64,000 bases of DNA from Macrostomum lignano (taxonomy: Eukaryota). The stretch covers positions 1-64,000 of the forward strand of contig NIVC01002210.1 of the NCBI GenBank assembly GCA_002269645.1, given 5' to 3'. The notes under the pieces are model-generated. The model worked only from the letters and a program-made list of their open reading frames with translations. It did no database searches and was not told the DNA's origin. The first letter of the stretch is position 1. Every line of letters starts with the position of its first letter. The position numbers and the translations under genes are program-made. Positions 6,031 through 19,931 of the stretch are shown in pieces.

Positions 6031-6699
6031 ACTACTAAGGGCCGGCAGATCCGTTGATTTTGCGAAGGTCCGTCGGGCTGATGTCGGCCTCTAGCACCGC
6101 GGCAAGGTGCTCCCTCGGGGTGTACACCCGGGGTGTACCTCCAGCGGGGTGGGCGTCCAGCGAGTGTACCTCCAGCGGGGTGGGCCTCCTGCGAGTGTAC
6201 ATCCGGCAGGGTGGGCGTCCAGCGAGTGTACCTTCAGCGCATGGGCCTCCCTCGGGGTGTACATCCGGCGGGGGGATTCCCGCCCCTCCCACCAATGTCG
6301 TGTGCACGCGGTTAGTGTAGGAAGGAAACCCCCGATGCTGACGCAGCCCTGTACACTGAGCAACCGGCCCCCATGCGGGGGACAGAGAGCAGCCCTGTAG
6401 CTGGGGACAGAGAGCAGCCCCTGTAGCAGGAGGGGTAGTGCGTGGAGAGCCGCCATCCCCCTGTAGCAAGGGACAGATAACAGGCGGCCCCCTGTAGCAG
6501 TATGAGGTGGGGTACAAAGAGACACGGGGTGCTGGGACAGAGAGTGCGTGGAGGCACCCTGCGCTGCCCTGGCATGTCGCAGCACGCGGCGTGGACAGAG
6601 AGGCAGTATGAATCACACCCCCCGCGGAGAGAGCGGCCCAGTCTGGAGGCGTGGGACAGACCGGCGGTGAGTGATAGAGAGCTCCCCAGGCTGCAGAGG
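6031..6699 (+). repeat. Left terminal inverted repeat (669 bp, GC-rich)
   Basis: Reverse complement of 19262-19931. By eye I found only one substitution (CGGGGTG vs CGGGATG) and one 1-bp homopolymer indel. Confidence 0.95.
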
Positions 6700-6781
6700 A
6701 CTTGAAAAGAAAAAAACACGTATTTTAGTTGTTTCAGGTTCAGGCCATCCGGCAAACAGAGCAAAGCTCTCCAACAGTGTT

Positions 6782-7411
6782 TTATTTAGCATAGACTACG
6801 GGGTAGCGCCCCAACACATTAGCATAGTAGCGAACAGATGCGTTCTGCAAGCAATTAACAATCAAGTAGGAGTAGGGCTCCCTAGTGGCGTCTTCGTACA
6901 TTTGAACAAAACTTTTTGGGTTAGCGGGGACAAGCTGCTTTGCAATATGGGCGACTGTACTAACGTCCCGTACATTGCGGAACAATACAAGGTAGTTTGC
7001 GTTAAGGGATTGAGTGCGGTGCTCCTTGCCCTTGGCAAACAGGTTTTGTACAAGGTACCAAAGCCGGAATCCCACATGGCTGACTTTGCGAGTGAAAAAT
7101 GCGGTAAAAGCAGCGTTTTTTTCCATGGCTTGCATTTGATCATCGACAACGAGTAGAATATTCGGAGCGGGAACATAGGTTTCAGGGTTAAATGTAGACG
7201 AGCGAAAATTGACAGGGTACGGTAATTCAAACAGTTCCGGGTCTGGATAGTGCCCAAACCAATCAACGCGAACAGGCTTAGGGTCCTGAAAAAACTCGTT
7301 TCGCAGCAATTCTTTAACAAGAGTTGTTTTTCCGCTCTGGTTAACACCAGCAAAAATCGCCGAAGTATTTGGAGCAAACTTTAGAGCGTCAGGATCAATT
7401 GTTTGGTACAT
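6782..7411 (-). CDS. A32/FtsK-like genome packaging ATPase
   Basis: Walker A GVNQSGKT, Walker B LLVVDD, and the LVQNLF...RT.SLNANYLVLFRN.RD motif typical of Polinton ATPases. First ATG at 7411. Confidence 0.93.
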   Translation of the reverse strand: MYQTIDPDALKFAPNTSAIFAGVNQSGKTTLVKELLRNEFFQDPKPVRVDWFGHYPDPELFELPYPVNFRSSTFNPETYVPAPNILLVVDDQMQAMEKNAAFTAFFTRKVSHVGFRLWYLVQNLFAKGKEHRTQSLNANYLVLFRNVRDVSTVAHIAKQLVPANPKSFVQMYEDATREPYSYLIVNCLQNASVRYYANVLGRYPVVYAK

Positions 7412-7445
7412 TTTCAGGGCGAGTTGACACTCCAAATATTAAAAA

Positions 7446-7883
7446 CTATTTTATTTGTAGAACATGTTTTCGAACCATCAAATCATTTTCAAGCAGATTG
7501 GTAGAGTAACATTCCCTTAAAATCTTTTCAATCGACAACCCCTCTAAAAAGTGCTTTTCGGCCACAAAAATCACATGCGGCCCACACGCTACACTTAGAG
7601 GGTGTTGAACAGGGTGGCGATTCATAGCAACAGGTGAATGTACATGCATCGAGATCCAAGCCGAGAGCAATTCCGGCACGGGTTCAATACACAGGGGGTC
7701 AAAAAATGTCACACTCTTATCATCGTGTAGGCAAATCAGTCCCCAGTGGGTGCCTGGCAGATTGCCCGTGTCAAAATTAATTACATATGCAGCAGGGTAA
7801 ACAGGTGCAGGAATTCTGTCAAGAGGGCAAACGCGCACTTCCACAGGTAGTTTTAAACGTTCCAAAATTTCCAACGTGTTCAT
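7446..7883 (-). CDS. Adenain-like cysteine (maturation) protease
   Basis: Catalytic His (GTHW), Asp (FFDP), oxyanion Gln (VQH) and Cys (ACG) in adenovirus/Ulp1 order. Confidence 0.92.
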   Translation of the reverse strand: MNTLEILERLKLPVEVRVCPLDRIPAPVYPAAYVINFDTGNLPGTHWGLICLHDDKSVTFFDPLCIEPVPELLSAWISMHVHSPVAMNRHPVQHPLSVACGPHVIFVAEKHFLEGLSIEKILRECYSTNLLENDLMVRKHVLQIK

Positions 7884-18032: not shown

Positions 18033-18382
18033 TCCTCTGACTCGTCAGATTCGTCGAGAAAGAAATAGTGGAAGAAATTGTCGACTCTATTCTTTTCAAC
18101 TGCACAAAGTATTTTGTCTGACAGGTGAAATTCGCAGTCTCCTTTTACGTACAGGCGCTTCCCGTCGATAACTTTGATAGATGCGCCGCCTCCGAGATCG
18201 TAATCTGTGCAGCTAGTGCCCAGAAATTTCATTCGATGCCATTGTGCTCGACTAAACACGGCTCCTGGACAGCTACAGTTTTGACAGTGGATGCGGAAAC
18301 GCGGTTTGTTTGGGTCCCAATATCCCACTTCCAACACTGCGTTGTCAACGTGGGTGTACACTATTTCCGATTGCCAGTGCAT
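18029..18382 (-). CDS. Hypothetical viral protein (~117 aa) with acidic tail; possibly PC4-like
   Basis: TATAAATA 32 bp upstream of the ATG at 18382. The LEVGYW...FS..QW pattern only loosely suggests PC4-type folds. Confidence 0.55.
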   Translation of the reverse strand: MHWQSEIVYTHVDNAVLEVGYWDPNKPRFRIHCQNCSCPGAVFSRAQWHRMKFLGTSCTDYDLGGGASIKVIDGKRLYVKGDCEFHLSDKILCAVEKNRVDNFFHYFFLDESDESEE

Positions 18383-18416
18383 TTCGATATTGTTGAGAAA
18401 TACCAATTTTATTTAT

Positions 18417-19196
18417 TTATAGGCAGCCGTCTGAACAGATTTCCAACCATTCCCTCCACTGTAGAACGGTTCTCTCAATTGATAAAAGTAAATACGCCGC
18501 TAGGAGCCCCCGGTTGCTGCTGCGCGCTTCGTAAAGACAGTTGAGATATGTGTCTCTATTTGCATACGCAAATGATACGGGTTCTGGCAGAATCCGGTTG
18601 AGCAACTTTGATAATAACAACCTAGCAGTTCTACCATTGCCGTCGCTAAAGGGGTGTATGGTGAGAAACTTTTCTAGGAAATATGCTCCTGTCACTACTG
18701 CATCACGCAAGATTTGTGGCTCTTTTATGTCTCTAGTTAATTTTACCAGCTGCCGTTCAATATTTTCTGGGGCACTGTAATACACACTCGCGCCTGCTGG
18801 CTTGGCGTGCTTAATTCTATACGATCCCGCATTCGGGAGCAGTCCTCTGCACACGCGTGTGTGAACTTGTCTAACAAACTCTGTGTCAATTAACCCCCTC
18901 GTGTCATTGAGGTGTATTGCCGCACTCCATAGATTGGCTGTGACCATACAGGACCGGGTTTTTATCGCTTCTTCTGCTTCCTCCCAAGTCAACGCCACCT
19001 CTCTCTCCTCAATGTTTACTTCAGTTACGAATGCCAGCCGGGCTAGATGTGTGAATTCTAAGCGCTCCTTTGCGGTCAATCCCTCGATTCTTTTCCTAGT
19101 GTCTGATAACAATCTTTCAATGAGGGGTAATCTGGCGCGCACGCTCTCGTTGCTGAAATAGGGGTTATCAGTTATACCCTCCTCCATGTTCTCCAT
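18417..19196 (-). CDS. Fic/Doc-family protein (putative AMPylase), 259 aa
   Basis: Canonical catalytic motif HPFSDGNGRTAR (18656-18621), upstream RQVH...AGSYR motif, and C-terminal R..YL..L..AR helix. Confidence 0.93.
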   Translation of the reverse strand: MENMEEGITDNPYFSNESVRARLPLIERLLSDTRKRIEGLTAKERLEFTHLARLAFVTEVNIEEREVALTWEEAEEAIKTRSCMVTANLWSAAIHLNDTRGLIDTEFVRQVHTRVCRGLLPNAGSYRIKHAKPAGASVYYSAPENIERQLVKLTRDIKEPQILRDAVVTGAYFLEKFLTIHPFSDGNGRTARLLLSKLLNRILPEPVSFAYANRDTYLNCLYEARSSNRGLLAAYLLLSIERTVLQWREWLEICSDGCL

Positions 19197-19261
19197 ACAG
19201 AGGGTTTGTACACTGCTTCTATTTATGGTTGAAATGACACGTTGCTCGCGGCCTGTCTGTC

Positions 19262-19931
19262 CCTCTGCAGCCTGGGGAGCTCTCTATCACTCACCGCCGG
19301 TCTGTCCCACGCCTCCAGACTGGGCCGCTCTCTCCGCGGGGGGTGTGATTCATACTGCCTCTCTGTCCACGCCGCGTGCTGCGACATGCCAGGGCAGCGC
19401 AGGGTGCCTCCACGCACTCTCTGTCCCAGCACCCCGTGTCTCTTTGTACCCCACCTCATACTGCTACAGGGGGCCGCCTGTTATCTGTCCCTTGCTACAG
19501 GGGGATGGCGGCTCTCCACGCACTACCCCTCCTGCTACAGGGGCTGCTCTCTGTCCCCAGCTACAGGGCTGCTCTCTGTCCCCCGCATGGGGGGCCGGTT
19601 GCTCAGTGTACAGGGCTGCGTCAGCATCGGGGGTTTCCTTCCTACACTAACCGCGTGCACACGACATTGGTGGGAGGGGCGGGAATCCCCCCGCCGGATG
19701 TACACCCCGAGGGAGGCCCATGCGCTGAAGGTACACTCGCTGGACGCCCACCCTGCCGGATGTACACTCGCAGGAGGCCCACCCCGCTGGAGGTACACTC
19801 GCTGGACGCCCACCCCGCTGGAGGTACACCCCGGGTGTACATCCCGAGGGAGCACCTTGCCGCGGTGCTAGAGGCCGACATCAGCCCGACGGACCTTCGC
19901 AAAATCAACGGATCTGCCGGCCCTTAGTAGT
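19262..19931 (-). repeat. Right terminal inverted repeat (670 bp)
   Basis: Reverse complement of 6031-6699; ends AGTAGT immediately before the TSD. Confidence 0.95.

Follow-up and report, generated by a model that had tools for sequence, protein, structure and literature searches.

Polymerase-less and polymerase-only elements with matching ends: a probable two-part Polinton in Macrostomum lignano

How is an element that carries the capsid genes and the integrase of a Polinton, and no DNA polymerase, copied and kept in a genome? The question is posed by positions 6031-19931 of a 64,000-nucleotide stretch of Macrostomum lignano DNA (GenBank assembly GCA_002269645.1, contig NIVC01002210.1, positions 1 to 64,000, forward strand), hereafter the window. 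The first-pass annotation of this DNA had described a complete-ended element without the protein-primed DNA polymerase of family B (pPolB) that defines Polintons, and had read it as either a satellite virus that borrows pPolB or one segment of a bipartite genome. The second proposal is favoured by our analysis and the first fits less well, since polymerase-only elements with the same ends occur in the same genome. We regard it as probable that the window element is the capsid and integrase half of a bipartite Polinton, and that the other half is this polymerase-only family, which also has terminal inverted repeats (TIRs). The evidence consists of complementary gene sets, shared ends, an integration signature and purifying selection on both halves, and splicing of pPolB in probable RNA.

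Two complementary sets of elements

The window element is bounded by 670-bp TIRs (left, 6031-6699, plus strand, with 31-bp tandem units; right, 19262-19931, minus strand) that align with 668 identities, one mismatch and one gap, and is flanked on both sides by the target-site duplication CACAGG (6025-6030 and 19932-19937). The near-identical repeats and the intact duplication point to a recent insertion. Both features lie within the ranges expected of Polintons (TIRs of 100-1500 bp, duplications of 5-8 bp), whereas the ends, ACTACTAAG...CTTAGTAGT, are not the Polinton motifs (AGT)2 or (AG)3; the one AC-starting motif on the list in PMC8097293, (AC)3A, is unlike them as well. Once an inserted repeat is removed, the native length is about 10.54 kb, which is occupied by 13 frames, all on the minus strand. 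No Pfam match to pPolB or a helicase was found in the element, and no helicase or primase-polymerase-type replication gene was matched by Pfam or NCBIfam; the unassigned proteins of 226, 171 and 117 amino acids are short for such enzymes. In all these respects (intact ends, frames filling about 10.5 kb, no polymerase, no helicase) the first-pass annotation was borne out.

The polymerase-less layout recurs elsewhere in the genome. A search with the first 270 bases of the window element gave 40 positives among the 40 matches scored (of 150 candidates), with many pairs spaced 10.3-10.8 kb apart. Of the first ten copies retrieved, nine are 95-99% identical to the window element and colinear with it once its insertion is left out; C355, the tenth, lies at the same site as the window copy and ends at a contig edge. 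These elements make up family A1. A second capsid family, A2, was recovered in a genome search with the major capsid protein (MCP), in which 98 of 451 candidates were scored, down to 30% identity. Its MCP is about 88% identical to that of A1 and its gene order is the same, without pPolB and with no detectable Fic or 117-aa gene. When 21 pPolB queries were run by tblastn against the 27 whole-read capsid-type elements (14 A1 and 13 A2, the window element included), none matched at E<=0.01. Exact 6-bp duplications flank 9 of the 14 A1 and 11 of the 13 A2 elements, the others having eroded ends or mismatched flanks, and one element, C5162, is likely an assembly chimera. Most single A1 copies bear at least one frameshift, at differing places, which may reflect decay or assembly error. 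The ratio of nonsynonymous to synonymous substitution (dN/dS; here and below from pairwise comparison of natural copies) between A1 and A2 is 0.04 for the MCP (dS 1.7-1.8), 0.05 for the ATPase (dS 1.5) and 0.06-0.15 for the integrase, with dS mostly 1.5-2 or saturated; the N-terminal part of the penton is more variable (0.1-0.4). Introns are not evident in the A core genes.

The partner families came to light in a Pfam search of the genome for pPolB, from which 13 regions were fetched regardless of their ends, so that the first B1 and B2 elements, like the first A2 elements, were obtained by a protein search and not by an end search. Three of the 13 regions are complete Polintons with AGTAGT ends, whose MCP is about 28% identical to that of the window. 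Three others (C173, C24 and C566) are 8.8-9.5-kb elements with TIRs, 6-bp duplications and pPolB, and with no match to the capsid module; a fourth, C271a, turned out to be an enlarged element of this kind; the remaining regions are other or partial Polinton families. The polymerase-only elements as a whole measure 8.7-11.3 kb and have TIRs and an intron-split pPolB, without capsid, ATPase or integrase genes; the only other product they encode is a small protein that may be PC4-like. Family B1 (C173 and C24) starts with ACTACTAAGG, as the window element does, and family B2 (C566) with ACTACGTA; their pPolBs are about 62% identical. No capsid-module match was found in 12 of 13 polymerase-type elements. 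The exception, C271a (C271:276939-317558, 40.6 kb), is a polymerase element holding genes 88% identical to another Polinton family, and we read its capsid-type genes as a nested insertion of that family. All 14 two-ended polymerase elements (10 B1 and 4 B2) are flanked by exact 6-bp duplications, although they encode no integrase. The pPolB elements sharing termini and lacking capsid genes that the first-pass annotation proposed to look for are thus present in B1 and B2, as are the copies of the same layout at different target sites in A1 and A2.

The pPolB of these families is under constraint and is spliced in probable RNA. Its main frame has a dN/dS of 0.15 between B1 and B2 (dS 2.0), four intron positions are common to both families, and the motifs that we take to be exonuclease I-III, polymerase A-C and vOTU-like are present, the exonuclease and polymerase motifs being the same in B1 and B2. 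On a B1 copy, each of five GT..AG joints was supported by at least two of the three probable RNA runs, and the single DNA run showed none of them. An opposite-strand joint beside a gene for a PC4-like protein (a weak assignment: Pfam E 0.034, PDB E 0.35) was likewise present in probable RNA runs and not in the DNA run. UniRef contains proteins up to 98% identical to the B1 pPolB that are labelled Macrostomum lignano, a flatworm used in the laboratory; other pPolBs reach about 37% identity at most. Next in likeness within the genome is the pPolB of C234 (35-46%), which is degraded, with no A-type genes in the 30 kb fetched. Further pPolB families, with frames of 1136-1211 aa and no MCP match from the queries used, are found at C506, C2322, C4799 and C166; C506 is a 17-kb AGTAGT-ended element with an integrase.

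The two sets share their ends lineage by lineage. A1 and B1 have the ACTACTAAG end type, and A2 starts with ACTACGTA, the same as B2. The first 32 bases of the window element (6031-6062, plus strand) are identical to the ends of the polymerase-only element C986, and this terminal cassette is likely the replication origin and integrase site. Over the terminal 31 nucleotides the mean identity is 0.73 between A1 and B1 and 0.75 between A2 and B2, close to the 0.76-0.78 found within classes, as against 0.48-0.52 across lineages; the longest common end prefix is up to 32 nucleotides within a lineage and 5 across. The pattern ACTACTAAG-N9-ATCCG-N4-T has 76 matches, versus 6 for a reversed control, and a degenerate lineage-2 pattern has 63, versus none for its control. 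At positions 10-18 and 19-28, capsid and polymerase elements of one lineage have variant blocks in common, and in this sample such sharing never crosses lineages. Elements with a matching duplication and unlike left and right end variants occur in both halves, which would fit an exchange of ends before integration. AGTAGT is the start of each complete Polinton with recovered ends (C114, C393, C759 and C4619).

Capsid and polymerase modules are also kept apart in the genome. After split pieces had been merged and matches under about 45% (pPolB) and about 65% (MCP) dropped, with same-site duplicates included and all 134 candidates of the pPolB exon search scored, the census held at least 28 A1 and at least 34 A2 loci (at least 62 capsid loci) and 56 B1 and 40 B2 loci (96 pPolB loci). 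Between the 62 capsid and 96 pPolB loci only three pairs share a contig, the nearest 47.7 kb apart. The interiors of A and B have no sequence in common. Clusters of such elements are found on several contigs (C157, C471, C513, C382 and C261).

The two-part reading and its alternatives

Complementary essential genes on two elements and matching termini, two of the marks of a bipartite virus, were both found. Protein-primed polymerases start at terminal sequences, and that of Polintons comes with terminal-protein and vOTU domains of its own, as described in PMC11071308. The pPolB of B would prime at the shared ACTAC end and copy both halves as linear DNA, and the integrase of A would insert both halves. 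Shared ends and purifying selection suggest that the polymerase of one half replicates the other, and the dependence appears to be mutual rather than one-way, because polymerase-only elements without an integrase still show 6-bp duplications. Co-replication would let end variants pass between the halves, and gene-less palindromes with the same ends would be defective passengers. More tentatively, the halves may derive from fission of one ancestral Polinton before the split of lineages 1 and 2, and the A capsid may package each half. We infer this trans-complementation and the packaging in particles from the sequences of the elements.

Several points weigh against the two-part reading. Free linear DNA, particles and activity in trans are proposed on the basis of contigs, and the evidence of expression concerns the polymerase half. 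There, the three runs are called RNA by a guess of the software, none being on record as RNA, and the last pPolB intron is missing among the joints listed; the label is supported by the contrast of the joints with the DNA run. The complete Polintons of the same genome could in principle provide either enzyme. With 98 of its 451 candidates scored, the capsid census may have missed a rare complete parent, and because some loci are same-site duplicates (C355 and the window; C49 and C3749) and one or more are probably chimeric (C5162), the loci are not all independent insertions. Selection by end pattern accounts for many rows of the end-identity table. The pairing also has its exceptions: the A2 repeat at positions 28-50 matches B1/C1 rather than B2, so some exchange or shared ancestry across lineages would be needed. 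Lastly, no monopartite relative near enough to root the fission was found, the next pPolB being about 37% and the next MCP about 36% identical.

The two halves might be working partners of separate origin, B being a plasmid-like replicon of independent descent that came to be paired with a capsid element lacking a polymerase, with ends that converged by exchange. This would agree with the lack of internal homology between A and B, with the introns of the B pPolB where none are evident in the A core genes, and with the absence of any blastp match (E<=1e-3) between the B pPolB and the pPolB of seven complete-type Polintons of this genome, to whose MCPs the A MCP is about 30% identical. We nevertheless find it unlikely. 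The B pPolB retains the long N-terminal region and, as we label them, the vOTU-like motifs of Polinton pPolBs, dS between lineages is similar for both halves, and B provides exactly what A is without, so that A and B together make up the eight genes given as the core set of vertebrate Mavericks in PMC8097293. A and B could instead be complementary deletion derivatives of an ACTAC-ended complete parent that is still active and is rare, unassembled or present as free virus. Deleted and palindromic derivatives do occur in this genome, non-autonomous derivatives are common among transposons in general, and the capsid census gives minimum numbers. Yet one and the same pair of deletions would have had to happen twice, in each of two lineages whose dS is near saturation. 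Junction remnants were not seen, none of the 158 loci has both modules within 47 kb, and the two-ended ACTAC elements longer than 12 kb that we checked as candidate parents (C4, C271a, C600, C1313 and C2525) were rejected, A-type and B-type modules not occurring together in them. Such a hidden parent is distinctly unlikely in our judgement.

The satellite proposal of the first-pass annotation, extended to both families, would have the capsid element use the pPolB of complete AGTAGT Polintons and the polymerase-only family travel as a separate passenger on their integrase. The genome does contain several families of complete Polintons in which pPolB has a long open frame, and these too make 6-bp duplications. 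Their AGTAGT ends differ from ACTAC from the second base on, their MCPs are only 27-33% identical to that of the window element, and the end variants common to A and B within a lineage, and in this sample never across, would go unexplained; we therefore hold this to be very unlikely. Assembly collapse or one-off decay we consider scarcely credible. The assembly does contain duplicates and a likely chimera, and scattered frameshifts occur in most copies, but 20 capsid-type and 14 polymerase-type elements have exact duplications, mostly at different sites and with a fixed layout, and purifying selection and spliced transcripts were found. The first-pass annotation had argued that the window element is no decayed remnant, and had named a one-off internal deletion and a collapsed assembly as findings that would overturn it. 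Neither was found, the polymerase-less layout being shared by the sister families A1 and A2 at many target sites.

The two-part reading has a bolder form, which we find somewhat more doubtful than probable. The system would be a true multipartite animal double-stranded DNA virus of the adenovirus-Polinton lineage, with an intron-bearing polymerase, palindromic defective passengers and two integrating segments, each of about 10 kb and each packaged on its own in the same type of capsid. A terminal code open to exchange would hold the segments together and would have diverged along with them into two or more virus species within a single host.

Genes, passengers and relatives

From the right end, the genes of the window element run in the order Fic, the 117-, 171- and 226-aa proteins, TBP-like, PW, PZ, integrase, penton, PM, MCP, protease and ATPase. 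The labels PW, PZ, PM and penton are tentative, and are supported by conservation or by weak matches to complete Polintons of the same genome. The MCP (7880-9163, an open frame of 427 aa) has a predicted double jelly-roll fold (AF2 pLDDT 86), with a Foldseek match to the PBCV-1 capsid (E 7.8e-18) and matches to Sputnik and mavirus; its profile had no match among PDB sequences, so that the likeness to capsids came from the fold search. In a tree of 19 MCPs, A1, A2 and P0001-3 form one 100/100 clade apart from the complete Polintons of the genome, with long branches and an unsure sister group. The packaging ATPase (6782-7411; Walker A GVNQSGKT and Walker B LLVVDD read from the sequence) is 30-44% identical to the ATPases of complete Polintons in the same genome. 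The maturation protease (7446-7883), which we take to be of adenain type, has the H, D and C motifs and is 27-38% identical to its counterparts there. The ATPase, protease and penton all show their motifs and 23-44% matches inside these complete Polintons; no independent family match was obtained for the protease or the penton, and none in Pfam or among PDB sequences for the protease. The minor capsid protein, presumably the penton PX, is a single 376-aa frame in several other copies and is split here into a 3' part (9581-10225) and a 5' part (13590-14084). The small basic core-like protein at 9193-9537, presumably PM, is 86-88% identical in A2.

The integrase (14088-15166) is of the retroviral-like DDE type with a C-terminal chromo-like domain (Pfam rve E 1e-9, Chromo E 0.05); among 13 other copies, 7 have it as a single frame of 359 aa. 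The frames that we label PZ (15300-15926) and PW (15929-16291) are respectively 26-28% and 27-35% identical to proteins of complete Polintons. A TBP-like frame without its own Met (16431-16826) is truncated in the window copy; in another copy it matches TBP in PDB and in Pfam (E 9.5e-5; 22.6 bits, just under the cut-off of 22.9). It has a dN/dS of about 0.1 and is 78% identical in A2. Its conservation starts directly after a CAG resembling a splice acceptor and overlaps the end of the 226-aa gene, and the frame is likely a spliced exon. With it counted, the largest gap between frames is about 145 bp (starts being approximate), and the largest gap of about 430 bp in the first-pass annotation is in fact this conserved frame. 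The 226-aa protein (16744-17424) is conserved at dN/dS 0.07-0.09, with no Pfam, NCBIfam or Atlas match and a single-sequence fold at pLDDT 35, and the 171-aa protein (17517-18032) at 0.15-0.18. As a guess, the 226-aa protein may bind single-stranded DNA. The 117-aa protein (18029-18382) was not detected in A2 and has no Atlas match and no useful PDB match; a PC4-like identity was a guess that found no support. The Fic-domain protein (HPFSDGNGRTAR; 18417-19196; Pfam Fic E 5.7e-14) has a canonical-looking motif and was detected in lineage-1 capsid elements only. Fic relatives at 53% identity form pairs on C42, C458 and C2412, with 2.3-2.6 kb between the members, and no element genes were detected around the C42 pair.

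The window copy carries three lesions. Two had been recognised earlier: a 3,362-bp repeat (10226-13587) that interrupts the penton frame, and a 1-bp slip, the integrase frameshift near 14,430, which was confirmed as real. The third, a short deletion near 16,450 in the TBP-like frame, had been missed. The repeat, presumably CMC/CACTA-like, is a high-copy non-coding sequence foreign to the element, with CCCAGTG...CACTGGG ends and a 2-bp duplication. It gave 96-100% matches elsewhere in the genome in 40 of 40 scored, and is absent from nine of the ten other copies first fetched, the tenth being the same-site copy C355.

Thirteen further elements have the same ends and exact duplications and contain no A or B genes. 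Most of them are palindromes, long or complete, with a separate set in each lineage, and inserted retroelements have enlarged two of the thirteen; lineage-1 and lineage-2 palindrome interiors show no likeness. We take them to resemble snap-back defective genomes. Palindromes of 3-12 kb lie at C657:75348-84724 (9.4 kb, near-perfect), C1197:117159-124408 and C271:410712-418178, and on C600, C1526, C1705 and C1607. A third coding segment was sought among the gene-less palindromes and is rejected for now, as they have no long conserved frames; long frames were those considered, and spliced or RNA genes are possible. Mini-elements of 247 bp with lineage-2 ends (C1368:57955-58201, duplication checked, and C4195:41473-41719) would bound the sequence needed for integration. 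Fold-back capsid or polymerase elements, with one end region duplicated in inverted orientation, occur at C1313:243594-257956, C1090:36570-47863 and C1158:30380-40909.

Outside this genome, three MCPs are 80-81% identical, and two proteins on short contigs, at 61-66% identity, span exactly the exon of pPolB from motif A to motif B, so an intron-split polymerase is present in further lineages. On the bolder reading, these MCPs and the metagenome proteins with exact exon borders would hint at further lineages of the virus. Searching metagenomes with the MCP brought up a single 7.2-kb contig, 29% identical; scans of viral contigs with the MCP, an MCP alignment and the end pattern gave no match, nor did a phage collection. 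Elsewhere in the window, 31001-34000 is GC-rich with Gln, Pro and His codon repeats and is probably a host exon, 52407-56946 contains nested inverted repeats about 4 kb apart and is probably another DNA transposon, and tandem arrays with units of 15-47 bp lie at 1-850, 5600-5860, 20973-21325, 34072-34971, 47223-50834 and 57830-58024.

Known systems and what the split form means

Similar to Polintons/Mavericks, the A element and its partner have long TIRs, a 6-bp duplication, a DDE integrase, a double-jelly-roll MCP, penton, ATPase, protease and PM, PZ and PW, with pPolB in the partner (compared with the features given in PMC8097293, PMC8502044, PMC10748475 and PMC4028283). Unlike them, pPolB is on a separate element and the ends are ACTAC... 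rather than (AGT)2 or (AG)3; the window element on its own is without the pPolB that marks a Polinton, which A and B together possess. The vertebrate Mavericks of PMC8097293 are single elements of 12.7-24.6 kb whose two gene modules are divided differently, and in its account of intact elements no introns are reported, whereas the halves described here are 8.7-10.8 kb each with spliceosomal introns in pPolB. Capsid-less Polintons are on record, PMC4028283 giving nine elements without MCP, protease and ATPase. The virion module is lost in these as in the polymerase half, but the latter is also without an integrase and has a complementary partner, of which the description in PMC4028283 mentions none.

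The bidnavirus BmBDV has two linear segments, VD1 and VD2, with matching termini and one Polinton-derived pPolB serving both, according to the accounts in PMC4061559 and PMC8502044. Matched termini and a single polymerase are common to both systems. Bidnaviruses as described in PMC4061559 are single-stranded and not integrated, with a parvovirus-like capsid and no integrase, and their VD1 combines pPolB with the major capsid gene; in the flatworm the polymerase lies on one half and the capsid on the other, and each half integrates. Membership of the Bidnaviridae, which calls for a parvovirus-like single-jelly-roll capsid and no integrase, does not suit a double-jelly-roll MCP with an integrase. 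The killer and helper linear plasmids of yeast, as portrayed in PMC13348850, likewise pair two TIR-bearing linear double-stranded DNAs with protein-primed replication and dependence, but are cytoplasmic, without capsid or integrase, with killer types that have their own polymerase and with one-way dependence. Polinton-like viruses and Tlr1 also have a capsid module without the standard pPolB, and use other replication proteins such as helicase fusions in the examples given by PMC11071308 and PMC5499653, whereas the window element has no recognisable replication gene. No bipartite Polinton was found in the literature searched, whose coverage was incomplete, so an earlier mention is possible; in the Polinton-related papers checked, "bipartite" referred to bidnaviruses or to a fusion peptide.

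The proposed two-part organisation would be new among the genome layouts of an already known group of viruses. Genome segmentation is familiar from RNA viruses and single-stranded DNA viruses, and the split form would show that stable segmentation is possible in this double-stranded DNA lineage. Integration may bypass its usual cost, because every host cell would store both halves. The ends would offer a natural readout of what the polymerase and the integrase of a Polinton recognise, some 31 bases at the terminus in two specificities within a single genome. Polintons are defined by having polymerase and integrase together, and a nematode Polinton survey required pPolB, integrase, MCP, ATPase and protease within 20 kb (as stated in PMC10748475), and both halves would be discarded by such a survey. 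"Orphan" pPolB genes and polymerase-less capsid clusters elsewhere may accordingly be partners rather than debris.

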